Below, in pieces: positions 2,423 through 39,719 of a stretch of DNA of 56,349 bases. Each line of letters opens with the position of its first letter. The stretch's first letter is position 1. The stretch covers positions 1 through 56,349 of the IMG/VR virus record IMGVR_UViG_3300020477_000031; one strand, given 5' to 3'. The notes below the pieces were generated by a model, which was given only the letters and a program-made list of their open reading frames with translations, made no database searches and had not been told where the DNA came from. Position numbers and translations under genes: made by a program. This DNA comes from a virus. Its lineage: Duplodnaviria > Caudoviricetes.

Positions 2423-2929
2423 ATGAGTAGTAAAAGTAGAAATATAGAAAAAGTTAAAAGTATGTTAAAAGGTACTTATGTACCAGAACGTAAAATTCAA
2501 GTGGCTACACATATCGATGAAAATGTGCATGAAGGTAGAAAAATTGGTGAAACATGGGAAGATTCTGATGGTGTAAAATGGGAACAAAAAAATGGTTATA
2601 GGATGAAAGTTTCTAAATTAGCTGATAGAGGTATAGCTGATAAATGTAATACATGTGAATATTATATTATAAAGGAATGGGATAAACAATCTTATAATGG
2701 ATTTGGTAATTGTATGAAATGTCAAATAGATTTTGAATCAAAATTAAAATTATATCCAATTAAATATAATAGTTGGGTTAGATTGATGGAATTAAATAGA
2801 ATGGATTCTATTAATGCTGAATTTGAAAAAATTATATTTGAAAAGAGTGATGAAATAAGTCCATTTGATATGACAATTGTAAATGCAATAGCTAACGAAA
2901 ATAGGAAAGATGGGGGAATTAAATTATGA
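2423..2929 (+). CDS. hypothetical protein with two CxxC pairs (Zn-binding?)
   Basis: CNTC and CMKC; GAGGG upstream. Confidence 0.6.
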   Translation: MSSKSRNIEKVKSMLKGTYVPERKIQVATHIDENVHEGRKIGETWEDSDGVKWEQKNGYRMKVSKLADRGIADKCNTCEYYIIKEWDKQSYNGFGNCMKCQIDFESKLKLYPIKYNSWVRLMELNRMDSINAEFEKIIFEKSDEISPFDMTIVNAIANENRKDGGIKL

Positions 2930-3848: not shown

Positions 3849-4075
3849 AATTAACTAAATCAAAACTTAAAGAAATTATTAAAGAAGAAATTAAATCTAT
3901 GCTTAGTGAAGGATTTGAAATAGGCTCTGAAACTGATAAAATAAAAAAATCACAAATATCTAATCAACTTGGGTATAAGATGGTCGGTGAAGTAGATAAA
4001 CCTACATTCGATTTAAGAAAATCATCACAAAGGGGAGATTCAAAATTTCCAAGTGGTAATTTGAAGGAGAAATAA
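3845..4075 (+). CDS. hypothetical protein with MKLTKSKLKEIIKEE leader
   Basis: Leader shared with 13044 and 13411. Confidence 0.65.
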   Translation: MKLTKSKLKEIIKEEIKSMLSEGFEIGSETDKIKKSQISNQLGYKMVGEVDKPTFDLRKSSQRGDSKFPSGNLKEK

Positions 4076-4775: not shown

Positions 4776-6378
4776 ATTAAAACAAGCGATTAAACGAGAA
4801 TATATAGAGTGTGTACAAAATCCAATACACTTTATGAGAAAATATTGCACAATTCAACATCCCAAAGAAGGTAAAATAAAATTCGATTTATATGATTTCC
4901 AAGAAAAATGCTTAACAGAATTTACAAATAATAGATATAACATAATTCTTAAATCAAGGCAATTAGGTATATCAACTCTTTCAGCTGGATATGCATTATG
5001 GACAATGTTATTTCACAATGATAAAAATATTCTTGTGATTGCTACTGGTAAAGATGTGGCAAAAAATCTTGTTACTAAAGTACGTGTGATGTATGATGGT
5101 TTACCTACTTGGTTAAAAACCAATACGGAAGAAATAAACAAATTATCTATACGATTTACAAATGGTTCACAAATTAAAGCAATCGCTTCTAATGAATCAG
5201 CTGGTCGTTCTGAAGCATTATCACTTTTAATAATTGATGAAGCTGCGTTTATTGATAAGGTAGATGTAATATGGACTGCGGCGCAACAAACACTAGCAAC
5301 TGGTGGTGATTCAATAGTTCTTTCTACACCCAATGGTGTGGGTAATTGGTTTCACAAACAATGGGTTGGGGCAGAAGATGGAACGAATGAATTTAATACT
5401 ATAAGATTACATTGGACCAATCATCCAGATAGAGATCAAGATTGGAGAGATGAACAAGATAAGGTATTAGGTCCATCACAAGCGGCACAAGAATGTGATG
5501 CTGACTTCCTAACTTCTGGACAATCAGTTGTTGATCCAGCCATATTACAATGGTATAAAGATACTATGGTTTCCAAACCTGTTTTGGAAGAAGGTATCGA
5601 TAGGAATTTGTGGATATGGGAACAACCAAATTATACTAAAGATTATATAGTGGTTGCTGATGTGGCTCGTGGTGATGGTAAAGATTATTCAGCTACACAA
5701 GTGTTTGAAGTGGAAAATATGGAACAGGTTGCCGAATATAAAGGACAATTATCTACAACTGATTATGGTCATTTTTTGATAGATTTAGCGACTAGATATA
5801 ATGATGCTTTATTGGTGGTGGAAAATAATAATATTGGGTGGGCTACATTACAAACTATTATTGATAGAGGATACAAAAATTTATTTTATCAATCAAAAGA
5901 TATGCAGTATGTTGATACTGAAAATCAAATAAACAATAAGTATAGATCTCAAGATAGAAGTATGGTAGTTGGTTTTTCAACAACATTGAAAACAAGGCCA
6001 CTTATTATAGCTAAGATGGAAGAATATACAAGAGAAAAAATGGTTAAATTACATTCAAATAGACTTTTGGATGAATTATTCGTTTTTATTTATAAAACTG
6101 GTGTATCTCAATCTAAAGCGGAAGCAATGGATGGATATAATGATGATTTGGTTATGTCATACTCTATAGCTCTATGGATAAGAGATACAGCGTTGAGGTT
6201 ACAAAAAGACAAGAACGATCAACAAAGATTTATGATGGATGCTATGTTAGATAACAATGGTAATAAGGATTACACTGCAGGATTTAGTGTCGGTAATAAT
6301 AATAAACCTAAATCAAATCCATACGAAGTGGAACTCAGTGATGGTGAAAAAGAAGATTTAAGATGGCTCATAAGGTAA
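4762..6378 (+). CDS. terL: terminase large subunit (T4 gp17-like)
   Basis: LYDFQ Q-motif, KSRQLGIST Walker A, LLIIDEAAF Walker B, STPNG, nuclease VADVARG...DYS and NDDLVM. Confidence 0.96.
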   Translation: MSQSKLKQAIKREYIECVQNPIHFMRKYCTIQHPKEGKIKFDLYDFQEKCLTEFTNNRYNIILKSRQLGISTLSAGYALWTMLFHNDKNILVIATGKDVAKNLVTKVRVMYDGLPTWLKTNTEEINKLSIRFTNGSQIKAIASNESAGRSEALSLLIIDEAAFIDKVDVIWTAAQQTLATGGDSIVLSTPNGVGNWFHKQWVGAEDGTNEFNTIRLHWTNHPDRDQDWRDEQDKVLGPSQAAQECDADFLTSGQSVVDPAILQWYKDTMVSKPVLEEGIDRNLWIWEQPNYTKDYIVVADVARGDGKDYSATQVFEVENMEQVAEYKGQLSTTDYGHFLIDLATRYNDALLVVENNNIGWATLQTIIDRGYKNLFYQSKDMQYVDTENQINNKYRSQDRSMVVGFSTTLKTRPLIIAKMEEYTREKMVKLHSNRLLDELFVFIYKTGVSQSKAEAMDGYNDDLVMSYSIALWIRDTALRLQKDKNDQQRFMMDAMLDNNGNKDYTAGFSVGNNNKPKSNPYEVELSDGEKEDLRWLIR

Positions 6379-6410: not shown

Positions 6411-8180
6411 ATGGCTGATAATATTTTTAATAGATTGGGAAATTTATTCCAATCAAATATTATTCTTAGAAAAAGAGATGATGATAAATTAGTTGTAAAA
6501 GATTTGAATTTATCACAAATCGGCTTGACTAATAATATGGTGGATAGATTCAATAGATTGATGAAATCTTCTTATCATGGAGGATCCTATGCTAAGACAC
6601 AACAAGCTACTTATATTATGCAGAGACATGAATTATTCAGAGATTATGAATTGATGGATAATGATCCTATTATATCTTCGGCTTTAGATGTTTATGCTGA
6701 TGAATCTACAGTAGATAATGTGTCAGGTGAAATATTAAATATTAAAACTGAAAATAGAAAGTTATATGAAATATTACATAATTTGTTTTATGATATATTA
6801 AACATAGAATTTAATTTATGGTCTTGGATACGGAATTTAAGTAAATATGGAGATTTCTTTTTACAACTTGATATAGTAGATAAATATGGTGTTGTAAATA
6901 TTAAACCATTATCTGCTTACGATGTTGAAAGATTGGAAGATCATGATGAAATGAACCCTAACTTAATTCAATTTGTTTTATATGGTGATAGCAAAGAATT
7001 GAAAGAATCATATGAAGTTGCACACTTCAGGATGTTATCTGATGCTAATTATTTACCTTATGGTAAATCTATGATAGAAGGTGCTAGAAGAGTATTTAAA
7101 CAATTAACTCTTATGGAAGATGCTATGTTGATTCATAGAATTATGAGAGCTCCAGAAAAAAGAATATTCAAAGTAGACATTGGAAATATACCACCCAATG
7201 AAGTTGAAAACTTCATGAATAAAATGATAAATAAAATGAAAAAAACACCTGTTATTGATAATAAGACTGGTGAATATAATTTAAGGTATAATATACAATC
7301 TGTAACTGAAGATTTCTTTTTACCTGTTCGTGGTGGTGATAGTGGAACATCAATAGATACATTACAAGGATTGTCTAATGATGGTCAAATAGATGATATA
7401 GAATATTTAAGAAATAAACTTATGGCAGCTTTAAGAATACCAAAAGCATTTCTTGGATATGAAGAAGGTGTTGGAAGTAAAGCAACACTTGCAGCAGAAG
7501 ATGTTAGATTCGCGAGAACTATTGAAAGAGTACAAAAGATTATTTGTTCTGAATTAGAAAAAATTGCAATTGTTCATTTATATACACAAGGATTTGATGA
7601 TAAAGAACTTTTAAATTTTGAATTGGAATTAACAAACCCGTCAATGATTCATATGCAGGAAAAACTTGAATTGTTAACACAACAAGTTGATGTGGCTAAT
7701 AATATTATTGAAAATAAAATATTATCTCGTGAATGGATATATGAAAATTTATTTGAATTTAATAAACATGAAAAACATAGTGTTAAAGCACAAATAATTG
7801 AAGATCAAAAAGATAAATTTAGATATTCACAAATAGAAATGGAAGGTAATGATCCAGCAAAATCTGGTGAAAAGGTTGATACTGAAGGTGATTCTATGCA
7901 AGAAGGTGACTGGGGAGGTTCTGAAAAAGATCCTGCTAAATTTGATATTAATCCTCATGGTGCCAATAAGGAAGATTTAAAAAAGGCTACATCTTATGAT
8001 AGAGAACGATATGGTAAAAGAGATTTTAAACATGGAAGTCCATTACATCCTGGTAAAGGAGCTACTTTAATGAAGTCCGAATCCAGATTTAGTGGTATTT
8101 TAGGTGATTTGAAAAAGAAATATGATAAGAAGATTAAATCTGCTAGTATTTTAAATGAAGAATCATTAATTGATGATTAA
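6411..8180 (+). CDS. portal protein (T4 gp20-like)
   Basis: LMEDAMLIHRIMRAPEKRIFKVDIGN, EDFFLPVRGG, DIEYL..KL.AALRIP. Confidence 0.95.
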   Translation: MADNIFNRLGNLFQSNIILRKRDDDKLVVKDLNLSQIGLTNNMVDRFNRLMKSSYHGGSYAKTQQATYIMQRHELFRDYELMDNDPIISSALDVYADESTVDNVSGEILNIKTENRKLYEILHNLFYDILNIEFNLWSWIRNLSKYGDFFLQLDIVDKYGVVNIKPLSAYDVERLEDHDEMNPNLIQFVLYGDSKELKESYEVAHFRMLSDANYLPYGKSMIEGARRVFKQLTLMEDAMLIHRIMRAPEKRIFKVDIGNIPPNEVENFMNKMINKMKKTPVIDNKTGEYNLRYNIQSVTEDFFLPVRGGDSGTSIDTLQGLSNDGQIDDIEYLRNKLMAALRIPKAFLGYEEGVGSKATLAAEDVRFARTIERVQKIICSELEKIAIVHLYTQGFDDKELLNFELELTNPSMIHMQEKLELLTQQVDVANNIIENKILSREWIYENLFEFNKHEKHSVKAQIIEDQKDKFRYSQIEMEGNDPAKSGEKVDTEGDSMQEGDWGGSEKDPAKFDINPHGANKEDLKKATSYDRERYGKRDFKHGSPLHPGKGATLMKSESRFSGILGDLKKKYDKKIKSASILNEESLIDD

Positions 8181-9478: not shown

Positions 9479-9838
9479 ATGGCATATGTAAATTCAGATT
9501 CAATAGTAGGACATCCTTTATCTGGATCTAATAAAACTGTACAGGCACAACGTGAATATACTTTGGATCCACATGTAAAAACACCAACTGGTAATGTGGT
9601 TGAAGTAAGACCAGCTTCTGTTATAATAAAAGAAGGTGTGGATGTGGGTGATATATCATTTAATTTTACAACTACTGGATCCGTTGGAAATACCATTGGT
9701 ACTGATGATGGATCTTGGGTTAATTTTGGTCATAAATTTACTGGATCTAATGCAGAATTGGATATACAACCGACAGCTTGGAAGGGTAGTGTGTTACAAA
9801 CTGCTGGTGCTGTTATATTTGTCTATAAAAAAGTTTAA
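9479..9838 (+). CDS. small beta-rich virion protein (decoration-like?)
   Basis: G/S/T/V-rich with repeated xGS motifs, like the structural proteins. Confidence 0.5.
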   Translation: MAYVNSDSIVGHPLSGSNKTVQAQREYTLDPHVKTPTGNVVEVRPASVIIKEGVDVGDISFNFTTTGSVGNTIGTDDGSWVNFGHKFTGSNAELDIQPTAWKGSVLQTAGAVIFVYKKV

Positions 9839-9849
9839 AGGAGTATAAA

Positions 9850-10476
9850 ATGTCAAAACAAATATTAGTAGATTACATACCATTTGAAGTGGAGCCAGAA
9901 CAAATTAATGAATCTATAACACGTAATGGTGGTAAATTAATTGTTTCTGGTGTTCTTCAAAGAGCTAATGCAAAAAATCAAAATGGTCGTATATATCCAA
10001 GAGAAACCCTAATGAGAGAAGCTGATAAGTATGCACAAGTTCAAATTAGAGAAAGAAGAGCTCTTGGTGAACTTGATCATCCTGATTCTTCTGTTGTGAA
10101 TTTAAATAATGTATCACATAATGTTAGAGAGATGCATTGGAAAGGTGATGATTTACTTGGAACGGTTGAAGTTCTCTCTACTCCAGCTGGGAATATATTG
10201 AAAGAATTATTCAAGTCAGGTATTAAACTAGGTATATCATCGAGAGGTTTAGGTTCGGTTGAAGAATTAAGTGAAGCTGAAGATGGTGAAAATCCAACTG
10301 TAAAAGTTAAAGATGACTTTGAATTGATTGCATTTGATTTTGTATCGAATCCATCTACACAAGGTGCTTTTTTATCACCTATGAGAGAAAGTGTGGGTGA
10401 AAATAATTCAGTTAATAAATGTGGTAAGTATTGTAAAGTAGAATCTATTATAAATGATATACTTCGTGGAGAATAA
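9850..10476 (+). CDS. prohead core protease (T4 gp21-like)
   Basis: NQNGRIYP, ALGELDHP, VSH, GISSRGLGS, FDFVSNPSTQGA. Confidence 0.96.
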   Translation: MSKQILVDYIPFEVEPEQINESITRNGGKLIVSGVLQRANAKNQNGRIYPRETLMREADKYAQVQIRERRALGELDHPDSSVVNLNNVSHNVREMHWKGDDLLGTVEVLSTPAGNILKELFKSGIKLGISSRGLGSVEELSEAEDGENPTVKVKDDFELIAFDFVSNPSTQGAFLSPMRESVGENNSVNKCGKYCKVESIINDILRGE

Positions 10477-10478
10477 TT

Positions 10479-10784
10479 ATGAAATATAGAGATATCATAG
10501 GAATACGTAAGAAAGAAGAAAAGAAGATTGTTAAAGAAAATAAAATTGTTAAGATAAATGAAACTTTGGATTCCATTAAAGACGAATTTGGTTATGTGAA
10601 TGAAACAGTTCCTTATGGAAAACATGATAAAGTTAAATTTAGAAAGTTTATGGATATGGCATTAAAACATGCTGGGACTGATCCTCATGAAATAGCCAAA
10701 TCACTATTTCGTTTAGGTATTCCAAATAAATTTATTAAAAAAATAGGTGATGTTTTTGCTGCACAAGTTAAGGGAATGGGATAA
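10479..10784 (+). CDS. hypothetical protein
   Basis: Operon-coupled ORF with a GGAG SD. Confidence 0.6.
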   Translation: MKYRDIIGIRKKEEKKIVKENKIVKINETLDSIKDEFGYVNETVPYGKHDKVKFRKFMDMALKHAGTDPHEIAKSLFRLGIPNKFIKKIGDVFAAQVKGMG

Positions 10785-10785
10785 A

Positions 10786-11859
10786 ATGCCAGCCAAGTCA
10801 CAAGCACAGCAAAAATTTTTTGGTGTAGTAAAGGGTATCCAACAGGGTACTGGCAAGGGTACTGGTAAAGCTAAAAAAGCAGCTAAATCAATGAGTAAAA
10901 AAGATGTTGATGATTTTGCTTCAACAAAACATAAAGGATTACCTAAAAAAGTGAAAAGGGAAACAAAAGTAAGAAATTTAATTCTGAAGATGGTTCGTGA
11001 GATTATGAGTGAAGAAAAACTTACAGAAAAGGCCAAAAGAGATTACAAAGCAGAATATAAGAAATTTCAATCATCTACTAAATCAAAGAAATATAGAGCT
11101 GAATTAAACAAATACAATAGACAAAAAGGAACTTATGGTAATGGTGATAAGAAAGATGCATCACATAAAGGAGGAAAGATTGTGGGATTTGAAGAACAAT
11201 CAAAAAATCGTGGTAGGAAAGAGAAAAGTAGATTGAAGAAAGAAGGAAAACTTACACCAGAACAACAGTTAAGAGAAATTATTAAAAGTGTGATAAAAGA
11301 ATCTTTTTATACAATAGGAGCTGGTGGGTTAAGCAAAATAGAAGAAGGTGTTGTTCACATAGCAGTTAATTCACCATATTATTTAGGTGCATCTATGGAT
11401 CCAGATTTAATTATTGTAACTAAAGTGGATGATACATGGATTGAATATGTTAAACCTATATGGGATAATAAGAAAAAATTGAAAATCGAAAAACCAATCG
11501 GTGAAAGTTTAATTACAGATGGTACAAATACTTGGTTGAAGACTTATGGTAAGTATTCTGAAAATAAACAATATGCTGATACAATGAAAAAGAATTTAAA
11601 TGGTCAAAAAGGACCAAATAACGGAAAAGTTAAACCATCTGATTATGATAGATATGTATTAACTATTAAAGGTAAAAAAGGTTCGGGTGATGTTTATGGT
11701 ATCGCTAAGAATTGGGGTGTAACTGGTCGTTGGAATGGTAAGAGTGGCGAAGATACAGAAATGGAATTAGAATTGTATAAAATTTATATTCCACTATTGA
11801 AAAAGAAATATTCAAAAGAATTGACAATTGCTAAACAGAGGAAAGGTGAATTGAGATGA
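10786..11859 (+). CDS. modular polyprotein: DUF3008-like MPAKSQAQQ domain, HNH-like RDY..EY...DASH...SKNR domain, and an unknown domain
   Basis: The in-frame ATG at 10786 follows the upstream stop. Domains are separated by helical linkers (MVREIMSEEKLTE, QLREIIKSVIKE). Confidence 0.6.
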   Translation: MPAKSQAQQKFFGVVKGIQQGTGKGTGKAKKAAKSMSKKDVDDFASTKHKGLPKKVKRETKVRNLILKMVREIMSEEKLTEKAKRDYKAEYKKFQSSTKSKKYRAELNKYNRQKGTYGNGDKKDASHKGGKIVGFEEQSKNRGRKEKSRLKKEGKLTPEQQLREIIKSVIKESFYTIGAGGLSKIEEGVVHIAVNSPYYLGASMDPDLIIVTKVDDTWIEYVKPIWDNKKKLKIEKPIGESLITDGTNTWLKTYGKYSENKQYADTMKKNLNGQKGPNNGKVKPSDYDRYVLTIKGKKGSGDVYGIAKNWGVTGRWNGKSGEDTEMELELYKIYIPLLKKKYSKELTIAKQRKGELR

Positions 11860-12323
11860 TTAAATTAAAGTCACTTATAAGAGAATCGAAACTTATTACG
11901 GAAGCTACTCGTTGGGCAGTTGGTGTTGAAATGCCGAATGGTAAGATTACATCTGTTTATGGACATTACGATGGTTATCCAGAATATGTTGGCAAATTAT
12001 TGAAAAAATATTATAGTCAAGGTGCTGGTAAAGTTAGAGATTTGGTAAAACTTGGTAAACAAGGTATTTCTACTCTAGGGAAGAATTTGGGTAAGAAACA
12101 TGATTTTAATATGCCATATGATGAAAAAGAAAAATTGGGATATACTACTTTTTATGGTAGAGATAGAGGTGAAAAGGGTAATATGACTTCTAAATATAAA
12201 AATATGGAAGAATTTGGTAAGAAATTTACTAAAAGTGGTGGTGCTGAATTTGGATATATTTGGTCTGTAAATGATAGAAAGTGGTATGTATTTGATTACT
12301 ACGGAAAAAAGAAAGAATTATAA
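11856..12323 (+). CDS. hypothetical protein, MIKLK leader plus YGHYDGYPEYVG domain
   Basis: The YxHxDGYP motif is common in phage hypothetical proteins; it follows the leader ending LITE. Confidence 0.65.
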   Translation: MIKLKSLIRESKLITEATRWAVGVEMPNGKITSVYGHYDGYPEYVGKLLKKYYSQGAGKVRDLVKLGKQGISTLGKNLGKKHDFNMPYDEKEKLGYTTFYGRDRGEKGNMTSKYKNMEEFGKKFTKSGGAEFGYIWSVNDRKWYVFDYYGKKKEL

Positions 12324-12577
12324 TGATTAAATTAAAAGATTTATTAAAAGAAGCTAAACAAACTCAATTCCAAATACCAATAAGAGATCAACGGAGTGTG
12401 ATGAAAATTTTAAGGACATCCAAATCACAAATGGTTGGGAAATACAAAGAAGGCAGACATTATGATTTTGGTGTTGGTAAAGGTGCTACATTTATTTTAG
12501 CTGTAGATAAAAAATTAGAAGATGAAATACTATCTACTTTAATACAAAAGGGTATTAGGGGTATAAGAACAGTATAA
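12323..12577 (+). CDS. hypothetical protein with MIKLKDLLKE leader
   Basis: TAATG coupling and leader motif. Confidence 0.65.
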   Translation: MIKLKDLLKEAKQTQFQIPIRDQRSVMKILRTSKSQMVGKYKEGRHYDFGVGKGATFILAVDKKLEDEILSTLIQKGIRGIRTV

Positions 12578-16548: not shown

Positions 16549-17577
16549 ATGGCTAAAGGTTTAGATTGTGGTACATCATTTTATATATGTGCAACAGATG
16601 ATAGTATCAAAAAACAGAGGAATGCATTTTTGACTGTGGATGGAGACCCTAACCAGGTTAAACGTATGCTCAAAAGACAAAAAATTCCATTTGTACAAAA
16701 AGGAAATAAGATTCATATAGTTGGCCAACATGCTTTCAATTATGCTCAAATATTTTCATCTACAGAATTAAGAAGGCCAATGTCACAAGGTTTATTGAAC
16801 CCACAAGAAAAAGATGCTTTACCAGTATTGAATGCTATTATAGGTGAATTATTAGGAAAAGCTGGAGAAAATGAAGTATGTGTTTATTGTGTACCATCTA
16901 AACCTATTGATCAAACTCGTGAAGTGTCGTATCATGAAGATGTGTTGAAACAAATTATAGATACTTATGGATATAAAACTAAAGTAATTGAAGAAGCGGT
17001 TGCAATTGGATATGAAGGATTGATTGATGATGATTTAACTGGTGTTGCTATTTCAATGGGAGCTGGAATGTGTAATATATCAGTTATGTATCAAGGTATG
17101 TCTGCATTATCATTTTCAGTGGCTCGTGGTGGTGATTGGATTGATCAAAATGTTGCAAATGATACTGGTTCATCGAAAGCTAAGGTTCAATCGATTAAAG
17201 AGAGTTCAAATAATTTAGATTTAACTAAATCAGCTATAAATGATATCTATCAAGAAGAAAGTGAAGAATATAGTACTATACATGCAATCCGTTCTTATTA
17301 TGGTGCACTTATAAATTATTTATTGGTAAATTTAAAACATCAGTTTGAAAATACAGCTGATGTACCACAGTTTCCAAATGCAGTACCAATTGTTATAGGT
17401 GGTGGAACATCACTGGTTAAAGGATTTTTGGATGTGTTTAATGAACAGTTTAATCAAGATGATTTTCCAATTCAAATTAAAGAAATAAGATTAATTGAAG
17501 ATGCTCACACCGCCGTTTCTCGTGGTTGTTTAAGTGAAGCACAATTAATAGAGGAGGACGAAGATGAAATTGACTAG
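16549..17577 (+). CDS. actin-like ATPase (MreB/ParM/FtsA fold)
   Basis: GLDCGTS (phosphate 1), IEEAVA (connect 1), ISMGAG (phosphate 2), RGGDWID, IKE, VIGGGTS (adenosine), AVSRGC. Confidence 0.88.
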   Translation: MAKGLDCGTSFYICATDDSIKKQRNAFLTVDGDPNQVKRMLKRQKIPFVQKGNKIHIVGQHAFNYAQIFSSTELRRPMSQGLLNPQEKDALPVLNAIIGELLGKAGENEVCVYCVPSKPIDQTREVSYHEDVLKQIIDTYGYKTKVIEEAVAIGYEGLIDDDLTGVAISMGAGMCNISVMYQGMSALSFSVARGGDWIDQNVANDTGSSKAKVQSIKESSNNLDLTKSAINDIYQEESEEYSTIHAIRSYYGALINYLLVNLKHQFENTADVPQFPNAVPIVIGGGTSLVKGFLDVFNEQFNQDDFPIQIKEIRLIEDAHTAVSRGCLSEAQLIEEDEDEID

Positions 17578-27995: not shown

Positions 27996-28256
27996 ATGTC
28001 AATAGATAAGAAAATACCAACTGGACCTGATATTTATGGTGGCGGTGATGGATTACCAGATTGGATGCAATTTACAATAACAGCTGGTATGTTTGGATTA
28101 TTGGTATGGATACTATACTTACTATTTCACCCAACATTACAACTTGACGATACACACAGAGATTTACTGAATATTTTATTGGGTAGTTTTATAGCTTCAT
28201 TTGGTAAATGTATAGATTTTTGGTTTAGGCATTCAAAGAAAAAAGAGAGTAAATAA
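27996..28256 (+). CDS. holin (two TM helices)
   Basis: Two hydrophobic helices and a basic C-terminus; TAATG-coupled to the endolysin. Confidence 0.75.
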   Translation: MSIDKKIPTGPDIYGGGDGLPDWMQFTITAGMFGLLVWILYLLFHPTLQLDDTHRDLLNILLGSFIASFGKCIDFWFRHSKKKESK

Positions 28257-28738
28257 TGTTAACAAAATTTGATGATATAATAGATATAGTTATAAAACAC
28301 GAAGGTGGATACGTAAATGATCCAACTGATTTGGGCGGAGAAACTAAATACGGTATTACAAAAAGATTTTATCCGGATATTGATATAAAAAATTTAACAA
28401 AAGAACAGGCTAAGAAAATTTACTATGATGATTATTGGGTAAAGAATAAAGTACCTCAGATGCCTGATAATCTGAAACACATATATTTTGATATGTGTAT
28501 CAATCAAGGAAAAGGTACAGCAGTAAAAGTGTTGCAACGAGCTGTTAATTCAAAAGGTGGTAATTTGAAAGTGGATGGTGGATTAGGACCAATGACAATT
28601 GAATCGATCAATAAATACAAACCTTGTGATAATAGAACTCGTTGTTATAGATTAAAACACTATTACGATTTAGTTAATAAAAAGCCCGAACAAGAAAAAT
28701 TCTTATTTGGATGGTTTCGTAGGGCATTAGAAGTATAG
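28256..28738 (+). CDS. endolysin, glycoside hydrolase family 108 with PG-binding domain
   Basis: HEGGYVNDPTDLGGETKYGIT, LQRAV, VDGGLGPMT, FLFGWFRR. Confidence 0.93.
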   Translation: MLTKFDDIIDIVIKHEGGYVNDPTDLGGETKYGITKRFYPDIDIKNLTKEQAKKIYYDDYWVKNKVPQMPDNLKHIYFDMCINQGKGTAVKVLQRAVNSKGGNLKVDGGLGPMTIESINKYKPCDNRTRCYRLKHYYDLVNKKPEQEKFLFGWFRRALEV

Positions 28739-28750
28739 GAGAAAAAAGTT

Positions 28751-28930
28751 ATGAGTACTACAGAGTTATATAACGAAATTAATGATTTATTTGAAACATT
28801 TCAAGAAAACCATAGAAGTTTTACAGAAAAAGGCAATAAAGCTGCCGGTGGTAGAGCTAGAAAATCTATTGGTGAAATAAAGAAATTAGTTACTGATTAT
28901 AGGAAAGCTTCTGTTTCTGAATCAAAATAG
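28751..28930 (+). CDS. Hc1-like 'histone H1' small protein (not in ORF track)
   Basis: MSTTELYNEINDLFETFQENHRSFTEKGNKAAGGRARKSIGEIKKLVTDYRKASVSESK*; KGNKAAG.RARK signature; AGGAG SD. Confidence 0.8.
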   Translation: MSTTELYNEINDLFETFQENHRSFTEKGNKAAGGRARKSIGEIKKLVTDYRKASVSESK

Positions 28931-34726: not shown

Positions 34727-37213
34727 ATGAATATAAGTGACAGAGTTTTTGGTTCTGATTTTAGTCCCGAAATTAAAAAAAAATTATTGGCAAGACAGGC
34801 TATAACTGAAAATGCAAAAGCAAATGAATCTATTTTATCTGACATAGGAAAACATAATTTTAATGGTGAAGCTGAACTTTCATCTAGAAAGGTTTGGGCT
34901 CGTATGTGGACAGCTGTTTCTGTCTATCGTGTGGAAAATGCAGGTTCTGAAAATCAAGTAGCTAGTGATCCATTAGAAGTTAAAGTTTATGCCGTTGGTA
35001 ATAACAATTTAAGTGATTATGAACAAAATAATACATCCGCAAATGAATCTATAATGGCGGATTTTTTATCTAATAATGATTATATGAAACCAAACGCTGG
35101 TATAACCAACATATCCTCTGAATTGACTGGGTATCTAGGTACTATAAAGAATACTACAGTTAATTTTAAAGTATTTAACTATTTTGATTATGATAATATA
35201 GTAACTAATTATTTTTTAAAACCTGGTGCTACTGTATTTGTAGATTGGGGATGGGATACATCTTTAGCTTACGATCCTCTGGAAGAATTTAAAAAGAATT
35301 CTTCACTTTCTAATATAGAAGAATTTTTATATGGAAGTCCAACTAATCCTAATGGGTTAGTACAAAAATCTAAAGGTGATTTAGAAGTTGTTTTTGGTTA
35401 TGTAACTAAATATGATGCCAAAGCTAACTCGGATGGTAGTTTTGATTGTACAATAACTATTACTTCTAAAAATTATGCTATAATTGACCATGATCAATCT
35501 GGTTTAGTAAAATTGGATAATCTATTTAAGAATACTATTACAGATTTAGCTTTAAAACGATTGGCTGAAGAAATGGGATTGGCTGAAATATATGATTTGG
35601 ATTGGATAATATCATCAAAAAAAGGTGGTCAGTGGAGAAAAGCTGTTGCAAAGAGTGTAGCTTCTACTGAAACTAAATTATCACATCAAACTACAGGATT
35701 TAAATATCCAGTTATACCAGAAGCTTCTTATAAGAGTGGTATATACTTTCAATATTTAGATGATGATGTTGGTGATAAAAAGAAAAAAATACCAGATTTA
35801 AACAATAATATGTATGTTACTATAAAATTCTTTGAAGATGAATTTATGAATAATACATTGGGTATTAAAATGGACAATTCTGACAATGATGTGGGTTTTA
35901 ATTCTGAAGGCCAATATGTAAAATTCAATGAAAATTTATATAAAAAACAATTATATACGAAAAACAAATCTTCTTTACATTTTTTATATCCTGATAGAGA
36001 TATAGATAAAGTCAAATCTTCTGGTAGTGTTCCAATAAGAGATTTATTTATAAAAGTTAGTTTAATTAATAGTGAATTTTCTATAAATACGGATATAAAG
36101 GTAGCACTTAAAAATATATTAGATAAGATATCAGGTGATTCATTGGATGTGATGAAATTGAAATTAATGTCTATAAATAATGGTAATGGCTTTTCTATTG
36201 TTGATATAAATAACCCACTGATATTATCAGATATAAAAAATAGATATGATTTGGGTGAACGTAAAAAGGAAGCTTCTAAAGAAAAGAATTTTGATGATTT
36301 ATTTATGTTTAAACCATATTCTCCTAATTCTATGGTATCATCAATAGATTTGACATTAACTACACCTAATAGTGGGTTAGCTAATATGATAGCTATTCAA
36401 TCACTGGGTGGTGATAAGAAAACATTTCCAATATCAGAAAATATATTAAATAATCTAGCTTTAAAATCATTAAATATTGATGGTGATATACACTATGAGC
36501 ACTTACCTACTGTTGATAAATCTGAAAATAGGGTAGAAAAACAACAAAAAAATGAAGTCATTATACCATCACAAGTTACGATGGAAATAGAAGGTGAAGA
36601 TAATGATTCTGAAATTTTAAATACTATTGATAAATTTTATCAAGGTGGATCAGCAGAGTCTGTTGATTTTGTAAAAAAACTGAATGAAGATTATAATTAT
36701 GCTGTTAGTGCATCATCTGCTGTTAAAGTATCTAAATCTGAAAAAGATCAATTTTCTGATGAAGTTGCAGATGATACAGTAGTGACTACATCTCCTAGTA
36801 GATATTTTGAACATAAAGTTAGAAAACATATGGTAACTGGTGGTAATTATACACCCATATTACCATATTCCTTATCATTTTCTATATACGGTATATCAGG
36901 TATATCACCTGGTAATTCATTTAGAGTTGATTATTTACCTAAATTACAAAGAGAAAAATCATTTTTTTGTATTACTAAAGTTACACATGATATTAGTACA
37001 TCTACATGGACAACTAAAATAGATGCACAAATGCGAATGAGAAGTGATAAACCTCTTACAGAATCACATATAATAAGTACACCTCCCATTAAATTATCTA
37101 AAAAGGCTTTGAAGGGTATGGGTTATAGTAAAGAACAAATTACTGATATATGGGAAAATAATTTAAATTGGGAAGAAATACCCCCAGATCCTCCAGAAGT
37201 AAAAACTGCATAA
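34727..37213 (+). CDS. baseplate hub protein (gp27/VgrG-like)
   Basis: FLKPGATVFVDWGW, DGSFDCT, SIYGISGI.PGNSF.VDYLP, F.ITKVTH.I...WTT.I; position in the tail module. Confidence 0.7.
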   Translation: MNISDRVFGSDFSPEIKKKLLARQAITENAKANESILSDIGKHNFNGEAELSSRKVWARMWTAVSVYRVENAGSENQVASDPLEVKVYAVGNNNLSDYEQNNTSANESIMADFLSNNDYMKPNAGITNISSELTGYLGTIKNTTVNFKVFNYFDYDNIVTNYFLKPGATVFVDWGWDTSLAYDPLEEFKKNSSLSNIEEFLYGSPTNPNGLVQKSKGDLEVVFGYVTKYDAKANSDGSFDCTITITSKNYAIIDHDQSGLVKLDNLFKNTITDLALKRLAEEMGLAEIYDLDWIISSKKGGQWRKAVAKSVASTETKLSHQTTGFKYPVIPEASYKSGIYFQYLDDDVGDKKKKIPDLNNNMYVTIKFFEDEFMNNTLGIKMDNSDNDVGFNSEGQYVKFNENLYKKQLYTKNKSSLHFLYPDRDIDKVKSSGSVPIRDLFIKVSLINSEFSINTDIKVALKNILDKISGDSLDVMKLKLMSINNGNGFSIVDINNPLILSDIKNRYDLGERKKEASKEKNFDDLFMFKPYSPNSMVSSIDLTLTTPNSGLANMIAIQSLGGDKKTFPISENILNNLALKSLNIDGDIHYEHLPTVDKSENRVEKQQKNEVIIPSQVTMEIEGEDNDSEILNTIDKFYQGGSAESVDFVKKLNEDYNYAVSASSAVKVSKSEKDQFSDEVADDTVVTTSPSRYFEHKVRKHMVTGGNYTPILPYSLSFSIYGISGISPGNSFRVDYLPKLQREKSFFCITKVTHDISTSTWTTKIDAQMRMRSDKPLTESHIISTPPIKLSKKALKGMGYSKEQITDIWENNLNWEEIPPDPPEVKTA

Positions 37214-37260
37214 AAACGTTGTTTTGTATTATATAATATTTGTAACGTAAAGTATGATAT
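37212..37260 (+). promoter_or_regulatory. putative early/host-type promoter (AAAAACGTTG box)
   Basis: AAAAACGTTGTTTTGTATT is identical to 53419-53437; a related copy lies at 37502. Confidence 0.55.
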
Positions 37261-37266
37261 GAAACA

Positions 37267-37341
37267 CGAGATGTAGCGAAGTCCGGTTATCGCACTTGCT
37301 TTGGGAGCAAGGGATCGTAGGTTCAAATCCTACCATCTCGA
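37267..37341 (+). tRNA. tRNA-Pro(UGG)
   Basis: Acceptor CGAGATG/CATCTCG, anticodon arm CTTGC-TTTGGGA-GCAAG, T arm GTAGG-TTCAAAT-CCTAC; followed by CTA, not CCA. Confidence 0.93.
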
Positions 37342-37350
37342 CTACAAATG

Positions 37351-37468
37351 GGGGATGTATTGGTATCGATTGGGCTTGTTTAACACGGAGTGGTGTTAAA
37401 TGACATTAGTTGACTCAATGATATGTCATAATAAGTTCAAGACGGCGGTTCGATTCCGCCCATCTCCA
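37351..37468 (+). ncRNA. minimal tmRNA-like RNA (tRNA-like domain with ~50-nt internal insert)
   Basis: GGGGATG/CATCTCC-A acceptor with G3:U70, stemless D loop TATTGGTATCGA, 11-bp P2, GAC linker, GGCGG-TTCGATT-CCGCC T arm. Confidence 0.85.
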
Positions 37469-37544
37469 CTATTGTTACAAACTGTTACAATTTATTTTAC
37501 GAAAAACGTTGTAAGATCGGCCAGAATGTGTTAACGTATATTGT

Positions 37545-39719
37545 ATGGTTAACGATAAAAGAAAGGCATTTATGAGTTTTAATTCAAGAGATTTTAAGGG
37601 TTTCACTTTTCGTAGTGGCCCAGCTAAAAAGAAAGAAAATAAATCGTTTTCTTCTTTTTGGGATAATTCATCCGACAGTTATGATGTTGATGAATTTTTA
37701 GGTTTAGATAGTGATAAACCTAAAGGTAAAGATTTAGTTGCTTTGGCTGGTTACAAAAGAGCCATTGGTAACTTTGTTAATATTGTTACTGGTGAAAATA
37801 TTCCTGTTACTTTTAATTCAAGAGATGAAAGTTATACTGATGGTAAAAAAGTTGTCATTGGTTCTAACTTGAATGATAAGAATTTTGATGTGGCTGTTGG
37901 TTTAGCACTTCACGAAGGTAGTCATATTAAACTATCTGATTTTAATTTATTAGCTAATTTAGAAATGAATATTCCAGCTGAAATATATGTTTTGGCTGAA
38001 AAAGTTGGTGTTGATAGGATGACTACTGTTAGTACTGTTAAATCTATTCTTAACTATGTTGAAGATAGAAGAATTGATAGTTTTATTTTCAGAACTTCAC
38101 CTGGTTATAAAGGTTATTATCATTCAATGTATAATAAGTACTTTTATTCAAAAAACATTGATAAAGGTTTGTTGTCGGCTGAATTTAGAACCGAAACTAT
38201 TGATTCTTATTTATTCAGAATTATTAATCTTCATAATAAAAATCGTCAATTGGGAGCTCTTAAAGGTTTAAAAAATATTTATGACTCTATTGATTTAAAA
38301 AACATTAAATTCGTAAAAGATACGAATGACGCTTTGAATATAGCTATTGAAGTTATAACTTTAATTCTTTTAAATATCGACCCAATTAAAACTGAAAATG
38401 ATTCACAAAATGAATCACAAAGTCAACCTGGTGGTTCTTCTGATGACAATACAATGTCAGATGAAAAATTTGAAGATTTACTTGATTCTATTGAAAATGG
38501 TAATGGAAGTTCAGATGAATCAGAAAATGGTAATGGAACTTCTGTTCAAATTCCTACTGATAATCCTTCTTCTGGTAATATGTCAAATGATGATGGTTCT
38601 GAACCAGTTGAACTATCAGATAGACAAAAATCTTTATTGAAAAAAGCTTTTGAAAAACAAGAAAAGTTTATGGATGGTGACATCAAAAAAACTATGTTGT
38701 CTAAAAAAGATAAAACTGATGTTTCATCTATTGATGAAAGTAATTCTACTTATGAAACTGTTGGTGGTGGTATTAATACTAGTCATTGGAATTCTAAAGT
38801 TGGTAATGGAACTAAATGTTTGGTTGTTAGAAATCTTACTCAAGGATTGATTGATACAGGTGTTTTCAGATGTGCTACTTCTTGGAATCAATCAAATTAT
38901 AATCGTAATTCTGATTATAGTTATAGTAGAAGAAATTATAATTTTGTTGAAGAAGGTTTAAGACTTGGAACTATGTTGGGTAGAAAACTTCAGGTTAGAG
39001 GTGAAGAATCATCATTGAAATATACAAGAAAAGATACTGGTAGATTGGATAAGAGATTAATTTCTGAATTAGGTTTTGGAAACTCTAATGTCTTTAGTCA
39101 AACTTTCACTGAAAGATATAACAAAGCTTACTTACATATTTCAATTGACGCTTCTGGTTCTATGTGTGGTGATAAATGGAACAAAGCTATGACATCCGCA
39201 GTCGCGATGATTAAAGCTTGTGATATGGCTGGTAACATTGATGTGGTGGTTTCAATTAGAACTACTCACGGTGATGGGAGAAATGATGTTCCAATGATTA
39301 TGGTTGTGTTTGATTCACGAAAAGATAAATTACAAAAAGTTAGAGCTTTGTTTCCAGCATTGGATGTTTCAGGTACTACACCTGAAGGTTTATGTTTTGA
39401 AGCGATTATGAAAGATTTAATTCCTGGTAATTCTAATCAAGATAGTTATTTCATTAATTATTCTGATGGACAACCTTACTACTCTAATTCTGAAATTTAT
39501 TATGGTGGATTTGAAGGTGAAAGACACACCAGAAAAATGGTTAATGATATGAGAAATATGGGATTGAATGTTTTAAGTTATTTCATTGGTGGTGATTATG
39601 AAAGTGAAAGAGATAATAAAGCTTTTACAAATATGTATGGTAAAGATGCTTCATTTATCAACGCTACCAATATGATGCAAGTAGCAAAAACAATGAATGA
39701 AAAATTCTTAGAAAAATAA
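37545..39719 (+). CDS. HExxH metallopeptidase-like plus VWA domain protein
   Basis: GLALHEGSH...NYVEDRRID, acidic linker, IDASGSM MIDAS motif, GTTPE, SDGQP. Confidence 0.8.
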   Translation: MVNDKRKAFMSFNSRDFKGFTFRSGPAKKKENKSFSSFWDNSSDSYDVDEFLGLDSDKPKGKDLVALAGYKRAIGNFVNIVTGENIPVTFNSRDESYTDGKKVVIGSNLNDKNFDVAVGLALHEGSHIKLSDFNLLANLEMNIPAEIYVLAEKVGVDRMTTVSTVKSILNYVEDRRIDSFIFRTSPGYKGYYHSMYNKYFYSKNIDKGLLSAEFRTETIDSYLFRIINLHNKNRQLGALKGLKNIYDSIDLKNIKFVKDTNDALNIAIEVITLILLNIDPIKTENDSQNESQSQPGGSSDDNTMSDEKFEDLLDSIENGNGSSDESENGNGTSVQIPTDNPSSGNMSNDDGSEPVELSDRQKSLLKKAFEKQEKFMDGDIKKTMLSKKDKTDVSSIDESNSTYETVGGGINTSHWNSKVGNGTKCLVVRNLTQGLIDTGVFRCATSWNQSNYNRNSDYSYSRRNYNFVEEGLRLGTMLGRKLQVRGEESSLKYTRKDTGRLDKRLISELGFGNSNVFSQTFTERYNKAYLHISIDASGSMCGDKWNKAMTSAVAMIKACDMAGNIDVVVSIRTTHGDGRNDVPMIMVVFDSRKDKLQKVRALFPALDVSGTTPEGLCFEAIMKDLIPGNSNQDSYFINYSDGQPYYSNSEIYYGGFEGERHTRKMVNDMRNMGLNVLSYFIGGDYESERDNKAFTNMYGKDASFINATNMMQVAKTMNEKFLEK

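Follow-up and report, generated by a model that had tools for sequence, protein, structure and literature searches.

A tmRNA reduced to its tRNA-like domain in a fragment of a marine T4-like phage

The IMG/VR virus record IMGVR_UViG_3300020477_000031 (56,349 bases, about 31% complete; this whole stretch is called the window below) encodes at positions 37351-37471 a genuine phage transfer-messenger RNA (tmRNA) that is reduced to the tRNA-like domain (TLD) and is named mini-tmRNA here. It is a further example of a TLD-only phage tmRNA, that of Mycobacterium phage DS6A being already known. By analogy with DS6A, the mini-tmRNA may act as an alanine-charged decoy for SmpB and stalled ribosomes, a tentative reading that is given a probability of roughly 0.45.

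Identification and fold of the mini-tmRNA

The window was scanned with Rfam at gathering thresholds, at which only two RNAs were reported, a tRNA (69.6 bits) and a tmRNA. The tmRNA model RF00023 (gathering score 47 bits) matched 37351-37471 on the plus strand with 62.7 bits (E 3.6e-22) and was the best match within the tRNA/tmRNA clan at this position. The match covers model positions 1-374, with 290 model positions replaced by 38 nt. The following landmarks were obtained; the evidence is given in brackets.

37351..37468, +, mini-tmRNA, 118 nt to the discriminator A, 121 nt with the CUA trailer (RF00023, fold)
37351-57 / 37461-67, +, acceptor stem GGGGAUG/CAUCUCC with G3:U70 and discriminator A (sequence, model alignment, fold)
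37358-69, +, stemless D loop of the GG...UCGA type, ending UCGA (sequence, model alignment)
37370-79 / 37431-40, +, P2, 10 bp with one bulged base (minimum-energy fold)
37380-99, +, hairpin 1, UAACAC/GUGUUA (minimum-energy fold)
37400-29, +, hairpin 2, UGACAU/AUGUCA (minimum-energy fold)
37441-43, +, GAC linker (sequence)
37444-60, +, T arm GGCGG-UUCGAUU-CCGCC, GGUUCGAnUCC-type loop (sequence, model alignment, fold)
37469..37471, +, 3' trailer CUA, CCA not encoded; the same trailer is found on tRNA-Pro (sequence)

The minimum-energy fold of the whole mini-tmRNA (-39.5 kcal/mol, z -3.2) is composed of acceptor stem and P2, the two hairpins and the T arm. Taken alone, the inner 71 nt that comprise P2 and both hairpins fold with -21.1 kcal/mol vs -11.08 +/- 2.32 kcal/mol after shuffling (z -4.32), a stability that was matched by 0 of 500 shuffles. 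A D stem and an anticodon arm are absent from the fold, and in place of pseudoknots PK1-PK4 it contains two simple hairpins. The GC content is 0.43 vs 0.30 for the window, and each of the 25 columns found invariant in the alignment of 22 short forms (see below) is retained. The 118-nt RNA with TLD hallmarks reported in the initial annotation was thus confirmed by the RF00023 score, the sequence and the fold, and model alignment and fold agree with its description of an intact TLD without pseudoknot ring or anticodon arm. Two measures had to be corrected: P2 does start at 37370 but comprises 10 bp and one bulge instead of 11 bp, and the spacer between tRNA-Pro and mini-tmRNA is 8-9 nt instead of 10 nt.

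Other assignments were tried and rejected. A tRNA-Ala was ruled out by the missing D stem and anticodon arm, by the clan competition won by the tmRNA model, and by ARAGORN, for which tRNA-Pro was the sole gene in the window, with neither a tmRNA nor a tag called at 37351-37471. The mitochondrial tmRNA model (RF02544, gathering score 65) gave no match there, its best scores in the window being 15.2 and 13.5 bits elsewhere. Among the three tools named in the initial annotation, the tmRNA model therefore recognised the element, and the mitochondrial model and ARAGORN did not. For permuted tmRNAs, RF01849 and RF01851 were run (RF01850 was left out) on the window, i.e. about 31% of the genome. The alpha_tmRNA model gave no match, the cyano_tmRNA model reached 14.6 bits on the T arm only, and the halves stand in standard order; for the two-piece alternative raised earlier, neither a permuted form nor a second piece was thus found within the window.

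Contigs from public marine DNA runs were compared with window positions 36700-38100. One X1 contig (2,808 nt, covering 36700-37444; X1 may be the source sample) and one X2 contig from a different study (157 nt, covering 37288-37444) showed zero differences, and in both, tRNA-Pro is continuous with nt 1-94 of the mini-tmRNA. A separate, short X1 contig (37442-37598) carries the 3' part, with an overlap of just 3 nt. An X5 contig from a third study differed at 3 positions in 84 nt (37361-37444). Among the contigs listed, the three covering this stretch (X1, X2, X5) stop at 37444, the first T-arm base, where an assembly branch point probably arises from words shared with other tRNA-like genes. 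One further X2 contig skips 37343-37470 and represents a relative without the mini-tmRNA.

Short tmRNA-like RNAs in other phages and bacteria

IMG/VR and bacterial genome contigs were scanned with a pattern in which 26 TLD positions were fixed and a middle of 55-85 nt was allowed; metagenome contigs were scanned with a narrower, window-like pattern. Short forms were retrieved from 23 stretches (L003-L005, L017-L036), namely 11 from IMG/VR, 3 metagenome contigs and 9 bacterial contigs. They are 102-133 nt long and consist of the TLD, P2 and a small variable insert. Of 20 stretches that were scanned, 18 passed the RF00023 cut-off, and L003 and L031 fell below it; unscanned were L026 (short form identical to that of L025) and L029 and L032 (poor acceptor stems). 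RF00023 scores were as follows.

L004, 72.5 bits
L005, 71.7 bits
L017, 53.7 bits
L018, 67.3 bits
L019, 62.1 bits
L020, 65.6 bits
L021, 61.6 bits
L022, 65.1 bits
L023, 49.0 bits
L024, 74.6 bits
L025, 66.2 bits
L027, 72.7 bits; second copy 66.8 bits
L028, 59.0 bits
L030, 49.3 bits
L033, 62.9 bits
L034, 60.8 bits
L035, 59.8 bits
L036, 58.3 bits

An alignment (A1) was made of 22 forms, i.e. the window, the 11 from IMG/VR, L025, L027, 7 genome contigs and DS6A; L026, L029, L032 and the second L027 copy were left out. Over acceptor, P2a and T arm, 93.4% of the cells pair vs 47-58% with partners slid by 1-3 columns, and both sides change in 14 of 20 pairs. The covariation score was 0.655 vs 0.179 +/- 0.021 after shuffling (reached by 0/500 shuffles), with six pairs fixed by the search pattern and the signal stemming from the 13 pairs left free, namely acceptor pairs 5 and 6, three pairs of the T arm and all eight of P2a.

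The inserts are not related in sequence and vary in form: L005, L021 and L023 are a TLD with one long hairpin, and several others carry two hairpins. The elements were found in phage DNA-replication or packaging regions, in tRNA clusters (L033, L023) or in cellular neighbourhoods. That of L030 (3777-3899) lies about 90 nt 3' of the 5S rRNA that closes a 23S-5S operon on a 4.18-Mb Chloroflexia contig, that of L034 adjoins a hibernation-factor gene, and that of L031 is near SecA. Four of five bacterial assemblies checked (G016-G019) encode a normal tmRNA (144-203 bits) beside the short form, which fits a modulator and not a replacement; the fifth (G015) has the short form only. Within 3 kb of 19 short forms, no neighbour family recurred among 111 open reading frames (ORFs), and SmpB, RF-1 and peptidyl-tRNA hydrolase families were not found among them. 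These sequence comparisons are taken as evidence that uncultivated phages commonly encode short forms, which in bacteria also accompany normal tmRNAs.

Two side observations were made on these stretches. In the 64% GC viral contig L021, six type II hammerhead ribozymes (40-55 bits) are arranged in a row on one strand (9828-12349), about 1.1 kb upstream of the 102-nt mini-tmRNA. A GCCCA motif was noticed by eye in the inserts of the unrelated L003, L004, L017, L018, L022, L024 and L033 (e.g. AAGGCCCA, CGCCCAAGUG); also by eye, it opens a frame GCC CAA GUG plus stop in L018 and L033, and the other five have no in-frame stop.

A family of 133-nt forms without pseudoknots is represented by two L027 copies (5295-5427 and 7473-7605, both on the minus strand), which are 2 kb apart and adjoin CRISPR-associated genes, and by one L025 copy (2793-2925, minus strand). 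The frame GCC-TTY-NNN-NNN-ACG-TGA is kept in 3 of 3 (tags AFNAT, AFTET and AFSET). ARAGORN calls one member of the family a tmRNA with the tag AFNAT; its sole short call is an L027 copy not listed by the scans, and none of the 19 Rfam-passing short forms was called.

For the mini-tmRNA, the sole candidate for an mRNA-like domain with resume codon and tag frame is the following.

37402..37413, +, candidate frame GAC AUU AGU UGA (D-I-S-stop) within the 5' arm and loop of hairpin 2; motif UA(A/G)NN before G, plus in-frame stop

If it were used, the mini-tmRNA would be a working minimal tmRNA in which hairpin 1 takes the place of PK1 and the ribosome restarts on GAC 37402, adding A-D-I-S without a degron, such that the tagged chains escape proteolysis. 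The hexamer UUAAAU that precedes GAC fits the UA(A/G)NN context seen before the G of the resume codon in two full-length tmRNAs of related phages (L014, L015; see below) and in the 133-nt family, which keeps its 5-codon frame throughout and starts it at nearly the same place (nt 51 vs nt 52 here). Against this, a resume-like context with a short frame was counted in 6 of 22 short forms vs 3.6 +/- 1.6 in shuffles, 35 of 300 of which reach 6. By this class-wide test, and with no tag called by ARAGORN, the A-D-I-S frame put forward in the initial annotation cannot be told from chance. The frame also sits in a hairpin stem and has no homologue on which its conservation could be followed. The pseudoknot ring that surrounds the 30S beak is described as 81 x 97 A in size (PMC8363625), and with such dimensions two 7-bp hairpins, or about 50 nt in all, would be too small to form one. 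For the class as a whole, function cannot need a tag frame, since L005, L021 and L023 have one hairpin and the 83 nt of DS6A leave little room. Minimal tagging is hence considered very improbable; if true, it would imply, with the 133-nt family taken into account, that a template switch can be made with far less RNA than expected from the ~350-nt ring. The kissing interaction proposed between the two hairpin loops (GAGU:ACUC) was likewise overstated: it is a weak signal of 4 bp without comparative support, a length reached by 42 of 2000 loop shuffles in a test chosen post hoc.

Source phage, relatives and locus

The source is a fragment of a marine T4-like myovirus with 30% GC. Of its 68 ORFs, 67 are on the plus strand, as is the mini-tmRNA. 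Pfam searches of the 68 ORFs yielded a T4-type terminase, portal (Gp20), prohead protease, Gp23 capsid, sheath and baseplate, as well as gp32, RecA, a DnaB-type helicase and ribonucleotide reductase. The best cultured match of the capsid is Flavobacterium phage vB_FspM_immuto (51.5% identity), which makes a Bacteroidota host plausible; immuto has no tmRNA. Further genes of the window are listed here.

16549-17577, volactin-type actin, 256 bits
18271-18501, ribosomal protein bS21, 55.3 bits
28751-28930, Hc1 histone-H1-like protein, 67.7 bits
50313-50897, DruA-like protein, 40.5 bits
50899-51528, Mom-family protein, 129.6 bits

Together with the mini-tmRNA, bS21 suggests that translation is influenced by the phage at two or more points.

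Relatives were identified by the 724-aa protein encoded at 37545-39719, which has homologues at seven IMG/VR loci (43-70% identity); a tRNA or tmRNA was found upstream of the homologue in 0 of the 7. Five of the seven records were searched whole for tmRNA.

G001, 70 kb, full-length tmRNA at another locus, 89.9 bits
G003, 51 kb, full-length tmRNA at another locus, 89.9 bits
G005, 17 kb, full-length tmRNA at another locus, 86.8 bits
G002, 168.8 kb, 95% complete, no tmRNA above cut-off; tRNA-Ala followed by tRNA-Pro
G004, 55 kb, 29% complete, no tmRNA

The phage group thus shows three states, with a full-length tagging tmRNA, with none, and with a TLD-only form. The case considered earlier, that relatives carry a full-length tmRNA at this very place, applies to three of them as regards the gene, and in each it lies at another locus. 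Flanks of these genes match the window only at 28247-28755 (an endolysin gene), where no tmRNA is present. The full-length tmRNAs are 320-342 nt long and do not encode CCA (L014, L015); two tags were read.

1501-1820 of L014 (G001), -, full-length tmRNA, tag GNYTNYNVAYA (read by eye)
1503-1842 of L015 (G005), -, full-length tmRNA, tag GNTYNFAYA (ARAGORN)

In the phylum of G015, 22 cellular tmRNAs were sampled, and every tag has a terminal AA preceded by L, M or Y. The tags of the 4 tmRNAs of G016-G019 also end in AA, the preceding residues across the set being L, M, Y or A. The AYA-ending tags of the phage relatives may be weaker degrons.

The mini-tmRNA is preceded by tRNA-Pro, and the pair is flanked by the following features.

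37212..37248, +, promoter-like element, AAAAACGTTGT, about 18 nt, then TAACGT; upstream of tRNA-Pro, begins at the stop codon of an 828-aa gene
37267..37342, +, tRNA-Pro (anticodon UGG), CCA not encoded (ARAGORN; Rfam tRNA 69.6 bits)
37472..37494, +, conserved 23-nt motif TTGTTACAAACTGTTACAATTTA, TGTTACA twice 10 nt apart; directly 3' of the mini-tmRNA and 5' of the promoter region belonging to the 724-aa gene
37502..37537, +, promoter-like element, copy 2, 5' of the 724-aa gene (37545-39719)

The 11-nt repeat AAAAACGTTGT at 37212 and 37502 brackets the cassette of tRNA-Pro and mini-tmRNA. The pattern AAACGTTGT-N(15-25)-TAACGT occurs at two sites of the window only (upstream of tRNA-Pro and at 37504-37537) and was matched by 0 of 100 shuffles; a promoter role of the AAAAACGTTGT/TAACGT element is presumed from its sequence and position. 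The 23-mer TTGTTACAAACTGTTACAATTTA is single-copy in the window. An identical copy is found 4 nt after tRNA-Pro in G002 (L016, 1661-1683) with no mini-tmRNA between, and since G002 has both, the mini-tmRNA is a discrete difference of about 128 nt between tRNA-Pro and the motif. Close variants of the 23-mer lie upstream of the 724-aa homologue in L006/L008 (~3916-3938) and L007 (~3924-3946). As a motif of the form TTGTTACA-N3-TGTTACAATTTA, it is conserved in the phage group after tRNA genes and just 5' of promoter-like sequences. Binding of a transcription factor is one conceivable role of the motif, and movement of the tRNA cassette by recombination at this point is another. Over 25 nt, CUA trailer included, the 3' ends of tRNA-Pro (37320-44) and mini-tmRNA (37447-71) are 80% identical, and the mini-tmRNA could be lost or gained through recombination between them.

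With a regulatory-looking conserved motif directly adjoining it, the mini-tmRNA could also be imagined to have a role outside trans-translation, either as an attachment site or as a tRNA-like processing or stability element for neighbouring transcripts. tmRNA genes are reported to be common integration sites, and phages may carry fragments of them (PMC9004378, PMC10865867). An attP needs only the 3' part, whereas here both acceptor halves and the whole TLD are present and paired. No integrase catalytic domain was detected in the 68 ORFs, the best hit being an N-terminal SAM-like match below threshold (21.6 bits vs cut-off 27). DS6A is reported to integrate at tRNA-Lys and not at tmRNA (PMC10865867), and for this reason its TLD is not an attachment site. 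Such a role is the least probable of the explanations considered.

As for its origin, the TLD of the mini-tmRNA is closest to L014, with 49 of 66 compared positions identical vs at most 46 for 26 cellular tmRNAs. L014 is the nearest of 28 full-length tmRNAs compared, and slightly higher scores were obtained for two short forms selected by pattern, L025 and L027, in an identity ranking that is weak and biased for loci picked by a window-derived pattern. The first P2 pair, U-A, is common to mini-tmRNA and L014; most cellular tmRNAs compared have C-G. These sequence likenesses hint that the mini-tmRNA may descend from the lineage's own tmRNA and was then remodelled. They also count in favour of a recent, functionless deletion derivative of the full-length gene, a pseudogene caught before decay. 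Full-length tmRNAs in relatives are in line with this, as are the presence/absence difference (G002 and the X2 contig that skips 37343-37470) and the singleton status of the sequence in the collections searched. However, the inner 71 nt are arranged as a neat three-way junction such as a random deletion joint would not give (z -4.32). The inner 51 nt gave no significant local alignment with the interior of the relatives' tmRNAs (score reached by 103/300 and 215/300 shuffles). Moreover, the conserved TLD positions are all intact, the locus differs from the tmRNA loci of relatives, many unrelated phages have this architecture, with covariation, and the X5 run of another study contains a variant with 3 differences in 84 nt. 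A mere deletion remnant is therefore judged distinctly unlikely.

Function and comparison with known systems

In the decoy reading, the mini-tmRNA would be transcribed together with tRNA-Pro from the weak promoter-like site, its 5' end would be made by RNase P, and its 3' end would be trimmed and provided with CCA. Host alanyl-tRNA synthetase would charge it with alanine (G3:U70 and A73 are present), and host SmpB and EF-Tu would bind it. In the place of mRNA-like domain and pseudoknot ring, about 70 nt of P2 and two hairpins would offer no reading frame to the ribosome. Competition with the full-length host tmRNA for SmpB and stalled ribosomes would then lower tagging and proteolysis during infection. 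Host factors must be used, because SmpB, RF-1-type release factors and ArfB-type domains were not found in the window (ORF scan and six frames); SmpB was also not found in five further records. For DS6A, titration of SmpB by a decoy has been proposed and inhibition of tmRNA in E. coli reported (PMC4131195; PMC11915505), and by this analogy the decoy is the only reading with experimental precedent. It also fits the class, some members of which are too small to hold a frame and some of which accompany a normal tmRNA in bacteria.

Several points weigh against it. Three related phage fragments encode full-length tagging tmRNAs, which suggests that the lineage gains from trans-translation and has no need to block it, and favours rescue. 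A full-length tmRNA may also exist elsewhere in this genome, the record being about 31% complete. The DS6A inhibition is reported from expression in E. coli and not from infection. A scan for sigma-70 consensus promoters called neither promoter-like site, i.e. the site is weak. Close homologues of the mini-tmRNA were found neither in INPHARED (only the tRNA-Pro part matched) nor in IMG/VR (TLD patterns; inner-hairpin pattern) or JGI metagenome contigs, and covariation of the inner hairpins is unsupported for this reason.

The same RNA could instead rescue ribosomes without tagging: charged and bound to SmpB, it would enter the stalled ribosome and accept the chain on its alanine without a template switch. 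Resolution would require drop-off and peptidyl-tRNA hydrolase, or a host ArfB-type factor, and ribosomes would be freed for phage mRNAs with a product unmarked for degradation. That rescue is useful to the lineage is indicated by the full-length tmRNAs of relatives, and their AYA-ending tags, vs AA in the 22 cellular tmRNAs, hint at drift from the canonical degron. A TLD-only tmRNA is reported to accept a peptidyl chain in vitro (PMC3895274), tmRNAs without a coding sequence (CDS-less) from jakobid mitochondria and some plastids are considered functional (PMC11915505), and bS21 is another sign of action on translation. On the other side, the window encodes no release factor, ArfB-type domain or SmpB, and no such gene recurs beside 19 other short forms (111 ORFs). 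The sole experiment reported on a phage TLD-only form shows inhibition. Tag-less rescue is accordingly regarded as rather unlikely, while being the main rival of the decoy. If true, it would be rescue uncoupled from degradation outside organelles; if the decoy is true, a 118-nt RNA would be a compact natural inhibitor of trans-translation. Irrespective of this, the three states within one phage group form a natural series in which it can be asked whether rescue, tagging or neither of them is favoured by phages.

The mini-tmRNA is not a new kind of molecule, since DS6A is a precedent. The initial annotation had placed TLD-only forms mainly in protist mitochondria, a premise that is superseded by the phage form described in PMC4131195 and PMC11915505. 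Hudson, Lau and Williams 2014 list 'Mycobacterium phage DS6A (TLD only)', and the element was located at 28478-28560 of JN698994 (83 nt; tmRNA Website ID 11587). Both RNAs are phage-encoded, have a complete TLD with G3:U and a GGUUCGAUUC-type T loop but no tag frame and no pseudoknots, and are detected by the Rfam tmRNA model via their two ends; for the present phage, the window, about a third of its genome, contains no SmpB. They differ in that DS6A has one short hairpin in 83 nt and 43.2 bits (below cut-off), vs P2 and two hairpins in 118-121 nt and 62.7 bits, and in that DS6A is a temperate siphovirus of Mycobacterium, vs a 30% GC marine T4-like myovirus. The TLDs share only 34 of 66 positions, which points to probably independent origins. 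In the literature searched, short phage tmRNAs beyond DS6A and descriptions of the 23 pattern-scan short forms were not found; the sequence tables of PMC11915505 may list further CDS-less forms. A tmRNA is reported for 2.3% of phage genomes on the basis of ARAGORN (PMC9004378), and TLD-only tmRNAs may be under-counted in phages because surveys of this type miss short forms.

With full-length RF00023 tmRNAs, including those of G001, G003 and G005, the mini-tmRNA shares the TLD and the first P2 pairs; it differs from them by the lack of mRNA-like domain, tag and PK1-PK4. Those of the relatives are further set apart by their length (320-342 nt), scores (87-90 bits), AYA-ending tags and loci.

The CDS-less organellar tmRNAs (jakobid mitochondria; some plastids, Mallomonadaceae) are similarly described as reduced to little beyond the TLD, with SmpB encoded elsewhere (PMC11915505). 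They are the sole tmRNA of their compartment, whereas the phage host is expected to have a full-length tmRNA of its own, and the jakobid mitochondrial model RF02544 does not match the mini-tmRNA. Similar in design are the short forms L003-L005 and L017-L036, which combine TLD, P2 and a small insert and in some cases also lie in tRNA clusters. Their inserts are unrelated to that of the mini-tmRNA, some being one long hairpin; the 133-nt family has a 5-codon frame, and several of the forms occur in cellular contexts beside a normal tmRNA.

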